Positions 4,658 through 59,989 of a stretch of 64,000 bases of DNA are shown here, piece by piece. Source of the DNA: Perna viridis. Taxonomy: Eukaryota. Each line of letters starts with the position of its first letter. Position 1 is the stretch's first letter. The DNA lies in the NCBI GenBank assembly GCA_037379345.1, contig CM074511.1, forward strand, positions 46,072,862-46,136,861. Reading direction: 5' to 3'. The position numbers were made by a program, and so were the translations under genes. The notes beneath the pieces are model-generated. The model saw nothing but the letters and a program-made list of their open reading frames with translations. It searched no databases and was not told where the DNA came from.

Positions 4658-4692
4658 TATATAAAGTCAAGTTGCTGTCATACATTTTCATA
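4658..4692 (+). promoter_or_regulatory. TATA box plus Inr-like element of the small gene at 4739
   Basis: TATATAAAG at 4658-4666; TCA at 4688-4690, about 32 nt downstream; ATG in AAAATGG context at 4739. Confidence 0.6.
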
Positions 4693-4738: not shown

Positions 4739-5077
4739 ATGGCTAGTTTACCACTAGGGTCTGATATCTACAAAACTGTTTTAAGTGGAATTGAAAATAA
4801 ATGTACTGAAACTATCAAATGGAAAAATGATTCAGATGACAGCGATGACTGTTTTCCAGGTGAAATAAGGACTAAAACCATTCAAAGGACAGGAAAAAGA
4901 AACTCGTATAAACTAAATAGAGACAAACGCAATAAAAATAGAGTTCATTGGATTGATGAATGTGAGAATCTACCTCTTGCTTCGGACAAAAGATTCGAGT
5001 CTGACTCTGTTTCGAAAGTCAATTACAAGCCAATTCTGAAATGTCGTGCCAACTGTGTTATCATTATATCTGAATGA
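4739..5077 (+). CDS. 112-aa intronless protein; putative PP1-interacting small protein (RVHW and KPILK motifs), paralog A
   Basis: Clear protein-level homology to 28043-28348 (LPLGS..TVL, V.WIDEC...PLA..KR, KPILK.R.NC). Upstream TATA box; AATAAA at 5396-5401 followed by a GT-rich tract. Confidence 0.85.
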   Translation: MASLPLGSDIYKTVLSGIENKCTETIKWKNDSDDSDDCFPGEIRTKTIQRTGKRNSYKLNRDKRNKNRVHWIDECENLPLASDKRFESDSVSKVNYKPILKCRANCVIIISE

Positions 5078-5395: not shown

Positions 5396-5401
5396 AATAA
5401 A
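5396..5401 (+). terminator. Polyadenylation signal for the 4739-5077 gene
   Basis: AATAAA with downstream T/GT-rich element (ttgattctgtttgttg). Confidence 0.55.
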
Positions 5402-14165: not shown

Positions 14166-17101
14166 TTAATCGAGGCCCTCTAGCCTTTGAGCAGCAGTAC
14201 TGCAAACGGGAATGGTGTTTTTGGCTTCTATAAAACACTCTCTAGCCCGCCCAACGTTTCCATAAAGCTGATAACATACTCCGAGTAAAGTCAAAGAATG
14301 GGAAAGAGACCTTTTTCGAGGGTTTTCATTTGAGACAATAATGTTCAGTGTTGCTAATACTGCAGTTTGATTTTGAGTATCGCCAAGATGGAAGTAACTC
14401 AGAAAACGAAGGCAGTTCAAATAAATAAGTGGTGGTAGCATAAGAAGTGGTCTTATGTTAGCTTCGAGTCTGAATTCATATGGAATAAGTTCCGATTTAT
14501 CATTGAATAATGCATGCCCAACTTCAGTGAGTTTACGTTTTTGAATCAAGGTTAAGTTATGACCACATACTTTGTCTCGAAACATGTTTCTTTCTCCTTC
14601 TGTATAAGACGGGTTCCGTGCACTCAGCATATTTGGTTTTATTACAGATAGTAAATATTCTGTTACTACAAGAACATCTTTGAATTTTTTATGTTTGTAT
14701 AGGTGTGAAGCTAAAAAAAGCCAGCCTGATACGCAATCGGTTTTCGTTCCGTATTGTAACAAAGTCGTGTCTTCTCGGAACTTTCTATATTTGATTATAT
14801 TTCCGACAATTTCACTATCAAGAGTATTAGAGAGTTGCGGCACCTGCTTACAAAAGGCAGCAGCAAAGAAAGTCATCAGATCATGAATATACCCTTGTTT
14901 TTCTTTTTGTATTTTGTTAGTGAGAGATATCAGTGCCTTGTAAGCACATTTTTTATCGTCAAATGGGTAGGAATGCATACATCGAAGAACCAACAAATCT
15001 AAGTCTGCTTCCTGTTGAACATTCGAGTACGGAGTAACTCTCTCCAAACTAGCACTGTGTGAAAACACGTTAATTCCTTCTTTCATGACATTGTTTAGCG
15101 CCCATATTAAAGGCATGTTGTTATCATGTTTAATTTTACCCGAGAACATGTTATTTTGCGGAATAAAGTAATTTGGACATTTACATTCTCGAACCCAACG
15201 TATGATTCGATGCAGACATAATTGGAAACATAAATACAAGTTATTATAGTTCCAAATGTGGTCATCAAACTCTTCTGAAGTCCAGAATAAAGCTGTTTTT
15301 AAAAAATATGAACACAACATATTTTTCAAATGTTCTTGTTTTTCTATTATCTCCTTTAAAGTCAGCTTTAAAAGGCCGTAACACAAAATTTGTGTATGGT
15401 TCAACGTATACATCAATCGCTTTTCGGCAAGAGAAAAGGAAATTCTCCAAAGCCTTAGATTATCGTCATTTATTCTTGGGCCTATTGGTACAAGTAGACA
15501 ACCATCATTAACTACTTCAGAAATAATTTTTTCAGACGGCCAGTTTGAAACTCTTTTTCTGGTTATCCATTCGTTGGCTAAATCTGGCCAATGTTGGCAG
15601 AAAAGGCAAATGGCAAAATCGTACGATTGATATCCGACACAAGGTCCGTGGGCATCCCAACCTGGAATTTCAAATTGCTGCCTGAATTTAGAACTTGAAA
15701 CAGTGCCAGTGCCGTTTTCTAACGAATTCTTTATGTAATCGCTCATTTGCAAAGTTTCTCGGGAAAGTTTAAGTTCTACAAAACCAGGGTTTGTACTTTG
15801 TGCCACAAAGACCAAGTCAGTGAAGTCATCTCTTATAGGCTCTGGCTTAACTAGAACTCTTATAAATTTTAAAACAATCATCTCATCTTCGTCACTACCT
15901 GGAAGAGAAACACCTTCGGTTAGACTTCCAGTAAACATGGAAATGGAATCAATGTCTCCAAAACGGTTAGCGAAATTCTGTACCATGAAAATTTTCTGTC
16001 TCAGCTTAATTTCTTTAAATGTACCAATGACGATAACCGCATTCAAAAGGAATCGTCTGTAAATTTGGCTTCTACGAATATCTGAAAAAAAATATATGTA
16101 TTCATTACTAAATGCCTCTGATGATTAATTAAAGGCTTTTGACCTTTGAAGTGGAAGATTCTCTTAGAGGGACATATGAAGTAGACAGATTTTGAAAACT
16201 ACAAAATACATGAATTAAGCATAATTGACTGTCTGTATGTAAAAATAAGCCGATACTAATAATTTTCGTTAAAGATTGTGCGTTTTTTTTTCCCATGATT
16301 TATGTTGTTTGTGTCACAAATCAGCGATGTGACTGTAGGAATACAAAAATACCAATCATATACATGTTGTGCTTGTCGGTATGCTTTACACATATTTTAA
16401 GGAGCTACCTTTTATCAGAACCACATGCTTAGTTAAACTGTTGCCATACAAATGAAAGCAACAAATAGCAAACACTATTTCGGCTATTGCAAGAACTTTA
16501 ATTATTACCTGTGCATTTAAAGCTTTGATCAATCTTTTGTACTGGAATGATAATATTCTGTATTGCAATGTAGTTTTCATGTCTTCTCTTCAAACATGCC
16601 TTAAATTCATGTTCGAATTGAAAAATTGATCCTCCAAACAAGTCGTTGGTTATAACTGGTTTACCAAGCTTAGTAAACTTGACACAAGGAGAACTTCTGG
16701 TTCGACTGCCCTTGTAAGGAAATTTTTTATAGCATATTTGTTTGTTGTTGGTCTGAATCCACCCTCTTTTCAATTTATTTATCAGATTATCTAAGTCCAT
16801 ACTGCTCTGAAACAGTATAAAAACGTTGTAGATAAACAACAACACAAAACTACAACAATGTCATCAACTTCTATCAATTAAACGTACGTATTATTATTAT
16901 TGCATACTAATTAAAACGGGGAAGTTAAATGGCTCATACAAACACTAAATATGGCTTTGAAATCAAATGACGTCATATAACTTAGATATTATTCTTCCAT
17001 GGTACATAAAATGAATGACATGAGAATCCGACTTGGGAAGTACTAATGAGAGTTGCGAATTGTAAAATGTTAACATAAAGATACTTACAGTCTTCAACCA
17101 T
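14166..17101 (-). CDS. Mab-21/cGAS-like nucleotidyltransferase (cGLR-type) with C-terminal helical TPR-like region; 642 aa; exons complement(17089..17101, 14166..16081)
   Basis: NTase motif GSLTEG-x5-SDEDEM, third acidic residue in YDFA, and Mab-21 motifs WPxxAxEW, WRISFSLAEK, SYFLKTALFW, CPNYFIPQNNMF. Polypyrimidine+CAG acceptor at 16082-16084. An upstream AAAATGGTTGAAGACT|gtaagt micro-exon joins in phase 1 (MVEDY-IRRSQIY). Confidence 0.9.
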
Positions 17102-27863: not shown

Positions 27864-27940
27864 CACGTGGGTTAAAAGGTCCTTTGTAGTAAAAAATGTA
27901 TAAAAAGCGAATTTAAACGCTCTGAAATATTATTTCACTA
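27864..27940 (+). promoter_or_regulatory. E-box (CACGTG, 27864-27869) and TATA box (TATAAAAAG, 27899-27907) of paralog B
   Basis: Motifs seen directly; ATG in AAAATGA context at 28043. Confidence 0.5.
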
Positions 27941-28042: not shown

Positions 28043-28348
28043 ATGACAAGTTTGCCTCTTGGTTCGGTAATATTTCGAACTGTTCTAGCTGAAATAGACA
28101 AAAAGTACTTCAAAAATATGGAAGTTATTGAAGAAGAAATGAATGTAGAAAAGACAAGGTGCATCACAGACATTAAGAAGAGGAAGCATCATAAAAACTC
28201 GAAATATCGACAGCAATCTAAGGTTCAGTGGATTGATGAGTGTGGTGAATCCCCACTGGCTGTAGAAAAAAGACACTGCTTCCGAACTGAATCGAAGCAA
28301 CATTTAAAACCTATTCTCAAATATAGAACGAACTGTCTCTTATCCTGA
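28043..28348 (+). CDS. 101-aa intronless protein; putative PP1-interacting small protein (KVQW and KPILK motifs), paralog B
   Basis: The ATG at 28043 (not the GTG at 27965) aligns with the start of paralog A. Conserved motif blocks despite a divergent middle region; TATA box upstream. Confidence 0.85.
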   Translation: MTSLPLGSVIFRTVLAEIDKKYFKNMEVIEEEMNVEKTRCITDIKKRKHHKNSKYRQQSKVQWIDECGESPLAVEKRHCFRTESKQHLKPILKYRTNCLLS

Positions 28349-29397: not shown

Positions 29398-30674
29398 TGG
29401 TTCACCTAGATACAAATATGTAGTTCTTGGTAGAGATTTCTCATACTTTGTAAGAAATAATTCCAAATCATCTTCCAAATACATAGAGGAATATGTTTAC
29501 AAAATGCTGGAATTTTTAATCGACAACATATTTGTCCAGTGTGGTGGACGTGTTTTTCTAGAAAAGCAGAGGACGCTTACCCTACCGGTGCACCTGGTCC
29601 ATGCTCCCAGTTTTTAGTGGAGTCCGAGTTGCTCATTTACTTTTGTTACTTTGTATGTATGATTTTAGTTACTTTATGTTCTTTGTTGTGTATGTCTGTT
29701 CTCCATGTCTGGTCTTTGTTCCTGGATTACATTCTTTTGATTACCGCTATAACCTTGGTTCCCTTGATTACTCTTTCAACAAACGGTCGGCATTCCAATG
29801 GGAACAAATTGTGCTCCTTTACTTGCTGACCTCTTCCTTCACTCTAATGAGGCTGACTTTATTGCTGATCTGATCCAAAATAAAGAATATCGTTTAGCTA
29901 GATCCTTTAATCTCAGTTTTCGCTATATAGATGACGTATTATCTTTAAACAATCCTAATTTCGGGGATTTGATACATCGCATCTACCCCAAGAACTTGAG
30001 ATAAAAGATACTACAGACACTGAAGTCAGCCTCATATCTTGAACTACAATTAGCAATCGATGGTAAAGGAAAACTATTGACCGAACATTACGTCAAACGT
30101 GATGACTTTTCATTCAAAATTGTCAACTTTCCTTTCATCTGTGGCAACATCCCTTCAGCACCTGCGTATGGAGTGTTCATATCACAACTCATACGTTATG
30201 CCAGAGCTTGCCGAAACTACGCAGACTTTTTGTATCGCGCAACAAATCTAACAAATAGGCTTCTGGGACAGGGTTATGTTGCTACAAGATTGAAGTCATC
30301 ACTACAGAAGTTTTATGGTCGTCAACGTGAACTCGTGAATTGTTATGATGTATCCATCAGCACCATGGAAACTGATTTATTCAACGGGTCATAGTTTTTC
30401 TTTCCTCGTTTGTCTACCCCGAACTTGACTTTTTATGAGCAACTCGGCGCGTGTTTCTAGAAAAGCAGAGGACGCTTACCCTACCGGTGCACCTGGTCCA
30501 TGCTCCCAGTTTTTAGTGGAGTCCGAGTTACTCATTTGTTTTTGTTTCTTTGTATGTATGATTTTGGTTACTTTATGTTCTTTGTTGTGTGTGTCTGTTT
30601 TCCATGTCTGGTCTGTCCCTGGATTACATTCTTTTGATTACCGCTATAATCTTGGTTCCCTTGATTACTCTTTC
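29398..30674 (+). mobile_element. 5'-truncated Penelope-like retroelement (Naiad-type RT, no C-terminal endonuclease), family A, frameshifted
   Basis: MLEFLIDNIF..GGRVF|QQTVGIPMGTNCAPLLADLFL, FRYIDDVLSLNN, KRDDFSFKIVNFP, PAYGVFISQLIRYARAC. Stop at 30394, then a 280-nt 3' region ending ...ttactctttc. Confidence 0.85.
29559..29777 (+). mobile_element. 219-bp copy of the element's own 3' end inserted in its RT coding region
   Basis: Near-identical to about 30458-30674; removing it restores GGRVF-QQTVGIPMG in frame. Confidence 0.9.
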
Positions 30675-37500: not shown

Positions 37501-38307
37501 CTTCGTATTTGAAGCAGGAGGGTATTCTCTTGTGATCTTGCTCACAGTATTTCTAGTTTCATCTGGCTTTATGCGAGAGGTACCCAACACCAAAGGGAAA
37601 TAAATTTCAACCAGCTGTACCAATTTTCACAGTTACAGGCTTCTAAAATTAATCAGCCTTTTAGGTTATATTCTCTTTTTTCAGGAGTTCCTATAGGTTG
37701 GCATGGACGTGTTGACATATTATTTCCTGAGGTACCAGTTAAGACATTTACATCAACAGATGATCCAGAGTCCCAAGGAGGTGAAGGAAATCAATCCACT
37801 AGCGAGATGGAGGCATCAGCTGATATCCTATCCTCTAATAGAGAACAAATGAGAGCACAGACTATAGTGTTCTCTTTTTTGCAATTAAAAACCAGACCTG
37901 AACTTGAAAATTTTCTAATTCCAAGTATATCAATTTCCAGAACAAAAGTTGGAATTTGTTTTTATGATTGTAAAAATGACATACTATTAGAAACACCATC
38001 AATGGACTTGTTCATTGGAAGAGAGCTATGTAGACCAACTGTTTTTGTTCTCTGGCTGACATTGAATTTTAAGTATTTTTGTTCTGGTGTTAGTGAAAAG
38101 ATGAAAGAGACTGGTTTTACTGCTGACTTTTTTAAGTTGGTAGGAGGGGAAATTGACAAATACAAACAAGATGTAAAACACCCCTGCCCATTTCCAACAA
38201 ATTCAGATAATATAAAACTGCAAAAGGTTGAAAATTGTAGGAAAAAGCCAAAAGAAAATGTGAATAGAATAAATGATAACCCTGATTTATTTGCCAAAAA
38301 AAGTTGA
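31501..38307 (+). CDS. 4-exon gene, 412 aa, uncharacterised protein with restriction-endonuclease-like (PD-(D/E)xK) C-terminal region; exons 31501..31735, 34224..34400, 35865..36068, 37685..38307
   Basis: GT-AG sites at all three introns, all phase 1, joining to a 1239-nt stop-free CDS. Motifs ISEAEW, GDTSMG-x4-WHGRVDI, QMRAQTIVFSFLQ, IPSISI...FYD...DILL. The fold call is inference. Confidence 0.8.
36100..37560 (+). mobile_element. Two adjacent non-autonomous Helitron/Helentron-like repeats in intron 3
   Basis: Hairpin+CTAGTT 3' ends (gctcctaggagcatctagtt at about 36539-36558; gtgatcttgctcacagtatttctagtt at about 37532-37558), a (GTCT)n tract and an internal ~150-bp tandem unit at 37160-37490. 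Confidence 0.5.
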
Positions 38308-55220: not shown

Positions 55221-57634
55221 TAAGTAATAGGGTATGTAAGTCTCGTCACGTGACTCCGTGGTTTCGTAAGAATGGGTCCTAGTCTACCATTCAAATGCAC
55301 GGAGATTCGTCATTAACATAGCATTGAGTTCAATATTAAAAGCGAAGTATCATTTTTTGGGTAAAAATACTGATTGAAAATGACAATTATCAAGTTCTAA
55401 GAGATAAAAATGTTTAGAATAGCATAAAATAAAAGATTTTGCATTGTGAAGCAGCGTTTCAATTTCCCGGAAGTACACACTAAAATGCATATCGGTCTTC
55501 GGATTTCAATACGTTCTACACCAGAAATTCCGGAAGGGAAACTGAAACTTACAAACCCTAGTGTAGGTAAGTAAGTGAATTTTAATTTAAAGAGGGAACT
55601 CAAGAAGTCAGAACCGGCTTAATTTTCACCGATGCCGTGAAAAAGGATGCGGTACGTTTTCTTTTATGTTTCGTTTAGATAGTTAATCAAGATGGCTTTG
55701 TTGAAGTATTTGATCAAACTGTACCTCCAAACAAACAATCGCCTATTTAATGGCATTATGGCGCAATAAATTAATCTGTTAAGCGTCATCTTCTTATAAT
55801 AAAATGTAGAACAATATGATGACGATATCGTTGTCTTACGTGTGACCGACATTTTTACCATTCAAGTGTTTGTTGATCTGTCACGTCAAAATATTGCTTT
55901 TATTTAGTGCACTTTAAAAGGTCATGACACTCTGTTTGCTTCTCTTTGACATGTGATATGCATTACGAAAAGTGCCATTCCGGTGTTAATATATTTCTGT
56001 CATATTATGATACAGTCGTCGTCGTCGTCGTCGTTAATTCAGGCTGCTGAAACACTTCGCTTTCTCATGCTTTTTTTAACTTTTTTATCAGTATTTAATA
56101 TCGTCAATGTTCCAAGTTGTTAATCAGAGCTGCTTAACTACCGTAACGTTTCATTTTTTGTTTGTTTGTTCGTGTGTTAGTATTTGTTGGTTTTCTAGTT
56201 TTGTTTGTTTGTTTTTTTTATATCACAGAAAGCTACTTGCTATAGGCGACTTAATCATTTTACAAGCTTAGTCACTTTTAAAACGTTATTCTCTCTGCAT
56301 TTTCTGGTCGAAATAATTAAACACTATCAACTTGAATACTGATTTTCGGTGTTTTGTTTCATCCGAAGGGCAACTATTTTGAGGCCAACTGGCAGTCACT
56401 TCTACTTTAAAAATTTTATGTAAATAAAAATTAAGGAAACAGTATGTTTAAAAAAGTTTCAAATGGAAGCATTTGATTTCGGGTACAATAGCCACATTCA
56501 TTTTTTATGTCTGATTTTTGTGACACTGATTTATGGTCAAATTTTATCTCATACGCAACATAATTTAAGAGTCAATTTCCCCATTATAGAACGGAGATAA
56601 TTATACATGGTGATTTCAATTTCGATTTGTAATATTATTAGTTTCAAAAGTTAAAAATGATTACCAGCAGACAGAATATTCCCCTTATTTGTATAGTTAT
56701 TAATACAAAGACGTCTCATTGTCAATGGTAAGGATATTTACACAAAGTGTTCCCTTTCGAGGATCAATTCGTTCTGTTTAAAATCTTGACAAAGCATCAA
56801 ACTGTCGGGAATTATAATTTGCTTATCTTTAGGTCATCATGTCAAAATAAAATCGCCTACAGTGAATTGCCTGTGCTACATGTTTCTATTCATATTATTC
56901 AATCAATTACATTTTGTGAAATTTAAAAGTCGTAAATATTTAATTTTATTGAAATTAACCTTCATAAAACCTATGGTTACGAGTTTGACAAGGAAGGTAT
57001 GTCCTTGTTAGTCCATATATTTTTCATATCCTTGTGTATTTCTATCATGAACTTATACGATCTGCCTACCAACTCATTAACCAAACAACAAAGAAACCCA
57101 GTGGAACCGTTCGATAACAATAATTTTGGGTTAAAAGTTGTGAAGTTTATTTGCGCAAGGTACTTCACTTACTTTGTTTAAGATAGAACATAGTTAAAAT
57201 GCTTTTCACAACTGATTGAAGGATGTTTATTACACCCAGGTAAAATTCAGAAGAACGTAAATACACAAAATTTTATGTTACCTTTAATATTGGACCAAGC
57301 AGTCTTGATTTCAGTCAATTTCTCGGTCGATAACAATAAAGACATCAATCTAACGGATAAAAGAGATTGGGTCTGTTGTGACTTTAGTGATAATTTGTCA
57401 GAGTACAAATGACTTGTGAAATCCGCAGCATCCGGGAAACTTCTACAAAACCTGCACTAAGAAGCAATTGATTTCCAGTAAGAGGATTATATTGGTAGCA
57501 CTTTTCTAGTGCAGACTTGTGAGACAAATATTTACAGATATTTTCTACATGATCTGTGATGTCTTTTGTCACGCCTGTACCCTGGAGCGAAATTGATTGT
57601 GAAAGTTTACTTACTTGTTTGTAGTTTATTACGA

Positions 57635-57665
57635 TATATAGTTTGGGAACAGTCAGCTGCTCAGT
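57635..57665 (+). promoter_or_regulatory. TATA-like (TATATA 57635-57640) plus Inr (TCAGT 57661-57665) of the gene at 57728
   Basis: 28-nt TATA-to-Inr spacing. Confidence 0.5.
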
Positions 57666-57727
57666 GGATGAACTTATTATAGAGTGATCGGTGTGAGTTT
57701 ATCATTAGTGTCTGGAAATCATTGACA

Positions 57728-58216
57728 ATGAGAACGGAAAATGTTAAATCGCGCAGGACGCTAAAATCTAAAACACAAAGTATAGAGAGCAGTGTTATGA
57801 AGTTGACTCGGAGTAAAACACTGACGATCCCAGAGGCAAACAACACATCAATTGCTTCGTCTATGGACAATGAAAGATCTCACACACCTTTATCACGAAC
57901 TACCAGTTTACCGTCCTCGTTCAGTAATATAGAAAGAAACCCGTTACCAATAGGTTCTGACGCCTTCCAGGCTGTGTTGAGAGAATTTGTTGATGAAACA
58001 ACAGACTTTCCTGAACCGAAACAAAAAGAAACAAAGGAATATCAACATGAGGAACAACAATATCAACCCCCAAAAAAGACATCAAGTCTCAGACGAACTC
58101 AGTCTGAACGAATTCCAGGACGATCTGTGAGGTTTGGCGGGTTGGAGATAGAAGGAATTCCATCATCGTCTCATGGGCTGGCAATAAGACTATCTTCCAC
58201 CGATTTTAAAATTTGA
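57728..58216 (+). CDS. 162-aa intronless, Ser/Thr-rich, probably disordered protein; putative PP1-interacting protein (RSVRF), divergent family member C
   Basis: First ATG at 57728. Shares LPIGSDAFQAVLREF with the N-terminal motif of A and B; SSLR...RSVRF; TATA/Inr upstream; AATAAA at 58627-58632. Confidence 0.8.
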   Translation: MRTENVKSRRTLKSKTQSIESSVMKLTRSKTLTIPEANNTSIASSMDNERSHTPLSRTTSLPSSFSNIERNPLPIGSDAFQAVLREFVDETTDFPEPKQKETKEYQHEEQQYQPPKKTSSLRRTQSERIPGRSVRFGGLEIEGIPSSSHGLAIRLSSTDFKI

Positions 58217-59989
58217 AAGTTTAATGTATATATTTTCTTATGTTGTTTGTATGAAATTGTATATTTTGTCGAGAGGTTTGAAGGAATTCGAGTGCTAGGT
58301 ATTCGAGAGTCTTTCGTTGTCCATACGCGGATATTAAAGTTGGATTTCTTCTCATGTTTTACCGTAAATGGAGGTGAAGAGTTATCCTTACTAAAGTCAG
58401 TATAGAATTTCAATTTCTATATATGTACAGTAAATGCAATAATATCATTGTCTTTCATCTGTTGTTTGTAGTATGTTTTTATTTGTCTTTATGTGAAATC
58501 ATGGTATCTTCATTGTATAAAAGTTATTGATATTACAATATTTTACGTGTATGTATTTCACGCTGTTTTACATTTTCTTTTAAATGTTCCTTCTATACCA
58601 ATATGGTTCAAGTAATATATTGAACAAATAAACGAAGAATCAAAACATGAACTTTTTTTTAATTACAAGGACTGGAAATAAGGATTTTTTTTCAAATGTA
58701 TAACATAAATATTTTGGCCAACCTGAATGGTCAATTTTATACCACACTGATTTTAATACATTCGATAAATAGTATTGTATTATAATTATATTTCACGACT
58801 AAACAATGCTGGCTTGTTGATATTAAGTGTAAAAACAGACTGCAAGTTTTGTATATTCTTTAGAAGAATCGGCATGCATGTAATTTTGTCTGTATGTACC
58901 ATGAGTTTTCATACATGCGAAACAAAGGAAGTCACTTACAATATAGAGCACCTAAGAAACAACGGAGCATTAGCCTGTGACCTCACATTACAAGAAAAAG
59001 ACCTTTTTGTTCAGAAACTTGTGTCAAACAAATGCAAATGTCATTTTTTAATAGATTTTTAGAAATAGGGGATATCTCTATGTAACTTTGATCGGTATAT
59101 AACTTTTGCAAATTTCTATATGCAAGTTGCAAAAAATAGACTTCTGAACGTATACTTTCACAAAACTAGTATCGTATTTAACATAACCGCAATTAGGCAA
59201 GTTCTTTAATGTTTACTAATACCGGGATACTATGTATTTACATAATACCACTAATTACTTTATATGGTCCACTTTTCTTTTCCTAAACAAAACAATACAA
59301 TCCTTTCATCAATAAAACAATCGTTACAAACAAATATATCTAATTGCTACTATTTGAATCCGATGAGGATGTAATTTCCTTAGTTTATACAAAATGGTGT
59401 AGTGTCGATAACAATTTCTTAACATAAACCACGGCTTATTTGCCTTTCATGGAACAGTAACTACTTGGTCTATTTTTCATTTCTCTAAACAAAGATAATT
59501 ACACTATAGAATGTGTTCATCAATAATAGAAAAGACCGACATATAAATGTCTGTTTAGTTTCTATTCCATCCATTATCATAGCTACTTGTTAGTAGGTCA
59601 TCATGCAATGGACAAGTAAAACGGTGTCCGCCATAGATTCTGTAACTGTAGGTTGAGTGTATGCACGTATACTCTCAGGTTATAAATTAGGATTGTCATC
59701 CTCTGGCCTTAAAACTATCGAAGTCGTTTTCGGAACTGGTGCACTGGGTATTCATGATCGTTCTCTCGTTAACATCTTTTCTTATTTTTGTGGTGGGCGC
59801 ATATGTTCAGACTAAATTTTTCTGTTTCGGGCTTGTCGTTTGAAAAAAATGCTAGATATCCATTTATGTAAGGCTTCAATACCGTGTTGTGTATTCATTT
59901 AAAGCAAGTCTTTTTTTCATCAATGATCTTTTTAATTTGCAACAGGGCTTTGGTGGAGTAAAAATCTGTGATTTCACTCTATTACAAAT

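Follow-up and report, generated by a model that had tools for sequence, protein, structure and literature searches.

Inhibitor-2 and Inhibitor-3 of PP1 are small and disordered, their RVxF motif being of the K/R-V-x-W variant, and in Inhibitor-2 the SILK motif precedes RVxF. Helices with a Ser-Asp cap and hydrophobic residues at i, i+3, i+4 and i+7 are found in the activation domains that bind KIX or TAZ (CREB KID, MLL and p53). The strict RVxF consensus is defined as (K/R)x?(V/I)x(F/W) in PMC3937515, in which yeast Rif1 is described as carrying RVxF and then SILK, at positions 114 and 146. The SILK motif, as defined experimentally, is G/S-I/V-L/V-K, and in the crystal structure of RRP1B with PP1, which has RVxF at 683 and SILK at 724, the active site of PP1 is free (PMC9813921). 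Substrate choice by PP1 subunits is described as largely unknown in PMC7615683, according to which the disordered subunit PPP1R15B grasps eIF2 with short helices, far from the phosphosite. The Inka box consists of RSRQP and small hydrophobic residues (PLV), with helix contacts through F191, L194 and V195 of Inka1 (PMC4674680). We compared these systems with a mussel gene family, three members of which (genes A, B and C) lie in a stretch of 64,000 nucleotides of Perna viridis contig CM074511.1, referred to below as the window.

The shared motif and its gene family

The first-pass annotation had proposed the pattern LP[LI]GSxx[FY]xxVLxx[IF] as a new interaction module. The three copies that it reported were recovered on the + strand with exactly the same positions and translations, each within a short single-exon ORF. 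Gene A (4739..5077, +; 112 aa) is an uninterrupted frame with a TATA-like box at 4658, 81 bases upstream, and AATAAA at 5396; its motif extends over 4748..4792 (+; residues 4-18). Gene B (28043..28348, +; 101 aa), likewise uninterrupted, has a TATA-like box at 27899, 144 bases upstream, and its motif at 28052..28096 (+; residues 4-18). Gene C (57728..58216, +; 162 aa), the product of which is predicted to be disordered, has its motif at 57944..57988 (+; residues 73-87). AATAAA also occurs downstream of B and of C (for C at 58627). The motif is therefore N-terminal in A and B and internal in C, as had been described.

The strict pattern, back-translated, had three matches in the window, versus a mean of 0.00 and a maximum of 0 in 100 dinucleotide shuffles. 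As this pattern had been derived from the same three copies, independent profile tests were run. With a motif profile built from the 13 A/B-type proteins only, all four C-type proteins tested outscored each of their 200 shuffles, and with a C-only profile six of seven A/B-type proteins tested outscored all of theirs, the score of the seventh (P0044) being reached by 6 of 200 shuffles. Profile-profile comparison of C with A/B gave an E value of 1.3e-6 and a probability of 90.7%. None of 11 tests of the region following the motif gave an alignment of C with A/B beyond that of shuffles, so the description of the motif as the only clearly alignable block between them stands. The shared motif is real and conserved.

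Conservation was assessed on 21 family proteins, eight of C-type and 13 of A/B-type, all related to one another and so not independent; the fragments P0012, P0013 and P0037 were left out, as was P0036, which is B with a longer start. Homologs with a species name come from Mytilus edulis and M. galloprovincialis. Six relatives of C are 60-63% identical to it (BLASTP), one of them being named Mytilus edulis. The motif, the loss of which from orthologs of C had been suggested as an argument against it, is kept in these orthologs and in P0014, a protein of 185 residues (25% identical to C, E 1.1e-9) that retains only three blocks of C: the motif, a basic serine block and the RVxF site. P0014 was one of six hits obtained in an index-free search of 1.84 billion representatives, together with one ortholog, two fragments and two repetitive false hits. 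The repetitive proteins P0015 and P0016, which lack the motif, were excluded as relatives. A mixed-alignment search returned 21 proteins, all belonging to this motif family, and was incomplete, because P0014 was absent from its output.

In the eight C-type proteins, including the 25%-identical P0014, the motif can be extended to residues 68-90 of C (57929..57997, +), with I68, R70, L73, P74, G76, S77, D78, F80, Q81, V83, L84, E86, D89 and E90 invariant. The pattern as first written is too narrow, matching 11 of the 21 family proteins; the wider consensus is roughly L-P-hydrophobic-G-S-D-hydrophobic-[FYW]-x-x-V-L-x-E-I, and the motif has decayed in some paralogs (P0044 and P0046). Conservation was higher for the motif 15-mer than for the rest of the protein (0.83 vs 0.59 for C-type, 0.58 vs 0.38 for A/B-type), the 15-mer ranking 16th of 148 windows in the C-type and 14th of 98 in the A/B-type proteins, below the most conserved windows.

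Six motif copies were found in 264 kb around the window with a profile that included five of them, with nothing further under E 1, and they make up a tandem family contained in about 86 kb. The three copies outside the window are a broken A-type copy (L004/L005, - strand) about 15.4 kb before it, whose frame is interrupted by three stops and whose linker contains a microsatellite; an A-like gene, intact, at 4.2 kb on the same side; and a divergent C-like ORF (L007:1330-1689, +) about 6 kb past its end, in which the motif is present and RVxF absent, and which may be either functional or decaying. The divergence of A from its upstream paralog (pS 0.60, pN 0.16) is that of a pair judged to be under purifying selection. 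The adjacent M. galloprovincialis accessions VDI04299 and VDI04300 suggest that the cluster is shared with that species. Other features lie among and beyond these genes. Between A and B there is a 652-codon frame (14169-16124, -) with Mab-21 nucleotidyltransferase and Mab-21_C domains, of the cGAS-like receptor type. A 264-codon open frame (37513-38304, +) has no Pfam match and, by eye, resembles what we take to be a nuclease-like orphan family of bivalves. Two fragments (30005-30391, + and 46779-47477, +) look by eye like retrotransposon reverse-transcriptase remnants and have no significant Pfam match. About 16 kb beyond the end of the window, an ArfGAP exon (L009:5805-6317, +; E 2.7e-20) represents the next recognisable conserved gene.

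In the genome as a whole (723 Mb), a loose motif pattern gave 26 matches, versus 15 for its control; 25 were translated, the 26th (L042) having an in-frame stop, and the strict motif was found only in the three window copies. A second pattern gave nine matches, versus eight for its control, and the seven outside the cluster scored at most 7.1 bits, versus 43-46 bits within it. Such exact patterns overlook degenerate or intron-split copies. With these two patterns and their controls, no enrichment of the motif outside the one gene family was seen in this genome, and there were no relatives among 258 pattern matches in viral contigs. The excess over shuffled controls foreseen by the first-pass annotation thus holds for the window, whereas genome-wide the strict motif is confined to the tandem cluster. 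The database matches also belong only to this family, and the idea that the motif is an independent module, used again in proteins of other families, is not supported. The sharing of the motif would most simply reflect inheritance inside one local gene family.

For gene C, unspliced contigs from three runs of three studies cover 57021..58645 (+), each run contributing one contig that begins at 57021-57062 and stops at 58545-58645; these contigs have no strand or true ends, and the contig of a fourth, genome-sized run continues. They give a weak hint of a single-exon transcript of 1.6 kb, weak because the runs are guessed to be RNA. The putative 700-base leader (57021-57727) contains eight upstream ATGs, and at two of them frames of 44-45 codons begin; C may be under translational control, or an intron may have gone unseen. 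Residues 119-128 of C form a conserved basic serine block, SSLRRTQSER (58082..58111, +), nine of the ten residues of which are invariant in all eight C-type proteins, and which is likely to be a basophilic-kinase site. At 57890-57913, the orthologs of C have RASSLP, presumably a 14-3-3-type site, and gene C of the window has RTTSLP instead.

Putative PP1-binding motifs and the predicted helix

An RVxF-type motif was found in each of the three proteins. In A, RVHW (4940..4951, +) is followed by conserved IDE and PLA residues and, 29 residues past the RVxF valine, by a SILK-like PILK (5030..5041, +). B has KVQW (28220..28231, +), which matches the consensus, and a SILK-like PILK (28310..28321, +). 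C has RSVRF (58121..58135, +; residues 132-136), and P0014 has KVQW at the aligned place, where C has SVRF. The first-pass annotation had proposed to look for co-occurrence of the motif with RVxF, and this was borne out: the strict consensus is present in 19 of the 21 proteins, including A, B and C, versus 8-31% of shuffles per protein, and its valine lies at a similar distance, 50-66 residues past the motif glycine, in 21/21. The valine and the W/F are kept in all 21 proteins, the basic residue being lost in two. All 13 A/B-type proteins share V-x-W-I-D-E, P-x-A and I-L-K without variation, and all have [PS]ILK 29-30 residues past the RVxF valine; strict SILK occurs in three of the 13 and PILK, outside the defined consensus, in the other ten, whereas none of the eight C-type proteins has SILK. 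The RVxF sites fall in parts predicted, on low-confidence models and shallow alignments, to be disordered and non-globular.

Conservation of RVxF across 25% identity and in three subfamilies makes PP1 binding by the family likely, within the limits set by a motif that is short and common and by 21 proteins that are related. A genome search found no unspliced PP1 gene. The similar spacing between motif and RVxF suggests that C and A/B derive from one motif-linker-RVxF core, to which C would have added an N-terminal extension and A/B a C-terminal one, with a linker that is no longer alignable. As only the motif aligns, homology of C and A/B over the whole gene rests on their clustering and this spacing.

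Two single-exon genes elsewhere on the same contig, L036:1351-1668 (+) and L068:1498-1794 (-), match the RVxW and PILK region of the family at 34.0 and 19.5 bits, respectively, values reached by none of 200 shuffles, and have no score on the motif. Their RVxW and KPILKHR-x-[NS]C are preceded by a conserved Cys/His head, in which C-x-H is followed by C-x-x-C and which might be a zinc site; neither protein has a Pfam match. L068 has SVKW, without the usual adjacent basic residue. The L007 copy, conversely, scores on the motif only, its RVxF region being missing. A pattern for the PILK block matched five family genes and one chance sequence in the genome, and its control matched none. The contrast between L036/L068 and L007 supports a motif separable from the PP1 motifs, as might be expected of a targeting element. 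It follows that the helix is not required by the PP1 region of every member, and that targeting is a likelier role for it than PP1 binding.

AlphaFold models of A and C, based on alignments of 13 and 9 rows, had no globular fold (pTM 0.18 and 0.15, mean pLDDT 56.9 and 53.6). Their most confident blocks (pLDDT 63-68) were helices at residues 9-25 of A and 78-89 of C; the check by helical prediction thus placed a helix on the motif in both proteins, in low-confidence models. A second helix was modelled at residues 17-28 of C. Because pLDDT was low and the alignments were so small, the disorder and the helix are both weak predictions. The hydrophobic residues spaced i, i+3, i+4, i+7 are F80, V83, L84 and F87 in C. 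The helix had been described as amphipathic, and its moment did exceed that of 95% of shuffles in all eight C-type proteins, but in only five of the 13 A/B-type proteins, B (0.26) not being one of them. Its mean hydrophobicity is about 0.1 and its net charge mostly -1 to -2. On these models, the motif is likely to fold as a short amphipathic helix. WH2, export-signal and LIR readings were dropped by eye, on the spacing of their consensus sequences.

Readings of the predicted motif helix

The explanation that we favour, to which we give about an even chance, is that this is a mussel family of small, disordered PP1 regulators docked on a target protein by the motif helix. RVxF, and ILK where present, would bind the back of PP1, leaving the active site free, and the helix, with its Ser-Asp cap and a face of F/Y, V, L and I, would fit into a groove of a substrate or scaffold protein, to which PP1 would be brought by the flexible linker. 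In C, phosphorylation of the basic serine block beside RVxF might switch PP1 binding off.

The helix might instead pack on PP1 itself as part of an extended binding surface; the proteins would then inhibit or modulate PP1 and not target it. According to PMC9813921, additional pockets of a non-canonical kind are often used by PP1 regulators, and small proteins without a folded domain, with a motif-RVxF spacing held within 50-66 residues in all 21 of them, would suit such an arrangement. However, the linker varies by 16 residues where the RVxW-ILK distance is fixed at 29-30, and the two parts occur separately, RVxW and PILK without the motif in two relatives and the motif without RVxF in one copy. 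We consider this arrangement unlikely, while according it some weight.

A localisation or turnover signal (degron, export signal or membrane anchor), and not a substrate dock, would account for a helix whose start, in most A/B-type proteins, lies two or three residues past the initiator Met. The genes are single-exon genes with TATA-like boxes, a layout typical of short-lived inducible regulators. However, the motif is internal in C and yet invariant, its hydrophobicity (about 0.1) and charge (-1 to -2) fit a membrane helix poorly, and the invariant G, S, D, Q and E suggest a protein partner; a signal of this kind is, in our view, decidedly unlikely.

A bolder possibility concerns C, the motif of which could be an Inka-box-like pseudosubstrate of a group II PAK (PAK4 type), with PP1 tethered beside the kinase and A/B having kept the helix only. 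The motif of C was compared with the published Inka box. In a register counted by ourselves from the peptide and numbering in PMC4674680, the C-type proteins have Arg(-2) in 8/8, Pro(0) in 7/8 (replaced by Ser in the distant relative), Leu(+1), Ile/Val(+3) and Gly(+4), followed in a predicted helix by Phe(+8), Val(+11) and Leu(+12) in 8/8, and the genome has a PAK4-type gene. However, none of the eight C-type proteins has the Arg(-4) or Ser(-3) that are invariant in RSRQP, and position +2 is Pro, not Val; Arg(-2) is absent from all 13 A/B-type proteins, the start Met occupying its place in 11. No Pfam FAM212 (PF15342) match was obtained for any protein tested or at the locus, the three matches of a FAM212 search of the genome being sub-threshold and none of them at this locus, and the solved Inka chains were unmatched at E values up to 10. 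Moreover, Inka genes are described as vertebrate in PMC4674680 and PMC9612522. With no profile match and with Arg(-4), Ser(-3) and PLV missing, the family fails INKA/FAM212 membership. Complex prediction, run without controls, of C(58-95) with a stand-in kinase domain of PAK4 type from another animal (87% identical, 252/290, to the mussel exons) gave scores of 0.02, 0.38 and 0.30, with a median under the 0.34 mark, and weighs neither for nor against this reading. It is improbable that C is a pseudosubstrate of this sort, and just as improbable that it is an invertebrate Inka-box protein that blocks a PAK4-type kinase by plugging its substrate groove with the motif and delivers PP1 to it through RVxF, the tandem copies having lost the pseudosubstrate and put the helix to new use as an exchangeable head for PP1 targeting. 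If true, this would mean that PAK4 inhibitors also exist in invertebrates and are linked there to PP1.

That the RVxF-like words are incidental and the motif is the conserved core of an orphan family with no link to PP1 is very improbable: RVxF does arise in 8-31% of shuffles, and family libraries recognise none of these proteins as PP1 binders, but here it occupies the aligned position even in a relative that is 25% identical, and does so in three subfamilies, accompanied by ILK at a fixed distance.

Comparison with described systems

The family motif is like the activation-domain helices that bind KIX or TAZ in its Ser-Asp cap and its i, i+3, i+4, i+7 pattern. No such helix was among the PDB sequences matched by the motif profile (E up to 10), and the likeness shows the pattern to be generic. 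With Inhibitor-2 and Inhibitor-3, the family shares small size, disorder and K/R-V-x-W; however, the SILK-like motif of the A/B-type proteins follows RVxF, the reverse of the order in Inhibitor-2, and there is no Pfam match to the Inhibitor-2 or Inhibitor-3 family. In having RVxF and then a SILK-like motif, with a similar spacing (29-30 residues here), the A/B-type proteins are like RRP1B and budding-yeast Rif1, which are, in contrast, large multi-domain proteins; a further difference is that ten of the 13 A/B-type proteins have P, not G/S, as the first SILK residue. C resembles INKA1/INKA2 (FAM212) in being disordered, in having R(-2)-x-P(0)-L(+1) and G(+4), and in the helix that comes next, in which +8 is F and +11/+12 are hydrophobic (PMC4674680), whereas the A/B-type proteins lack the pseudosubstrate part; the RVxF of the family is a further difference.

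No entry for the family was found in Pfam, among PDB sequences or in the ESM Atlas, in which all matches were under the 0.9 mark. One PDB sequence search returned nothing, another nine chance-level rows (best E 0.39), and another a best E value of 0.093. No literature on the family was found by searching titles and abstract openings for motif strings, accessions and keywords, subscription papers and supplements lying outside this search. The motif is real and undescribed, and belongs to a lineage-restricted family of a known kind of protein. The reach of this family is limited, because it has so far been seen only in mussels and one distant relative. It nevertheless offers a natural swap experiment, in which a putative PP1-docking chassis comes with a helix (A and B), with a Cys/His head (L036 and L068) or, in C, with the helix and another tail, and proteins of 100-160 residues are easy to express, opening the way to direct partner fishing.

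The family has no match to PF10488, the PP1c-binding domain of PPP1R15/GADD34. The nearest named Atlas cluster for A is nonetheless PF10488 (41% of its members), at 0.81, which, being under the 0.9 mark, is a lead only. If the helix acts as proposed, the family would be like PPP1R15A/B (GADD34/CReP), which are disordered and recruit substrate through a module of short helices that is distinct from their PP1 site (PMC7615683), and would differ from them in being much smaller and in carrying a SILK-like motif.
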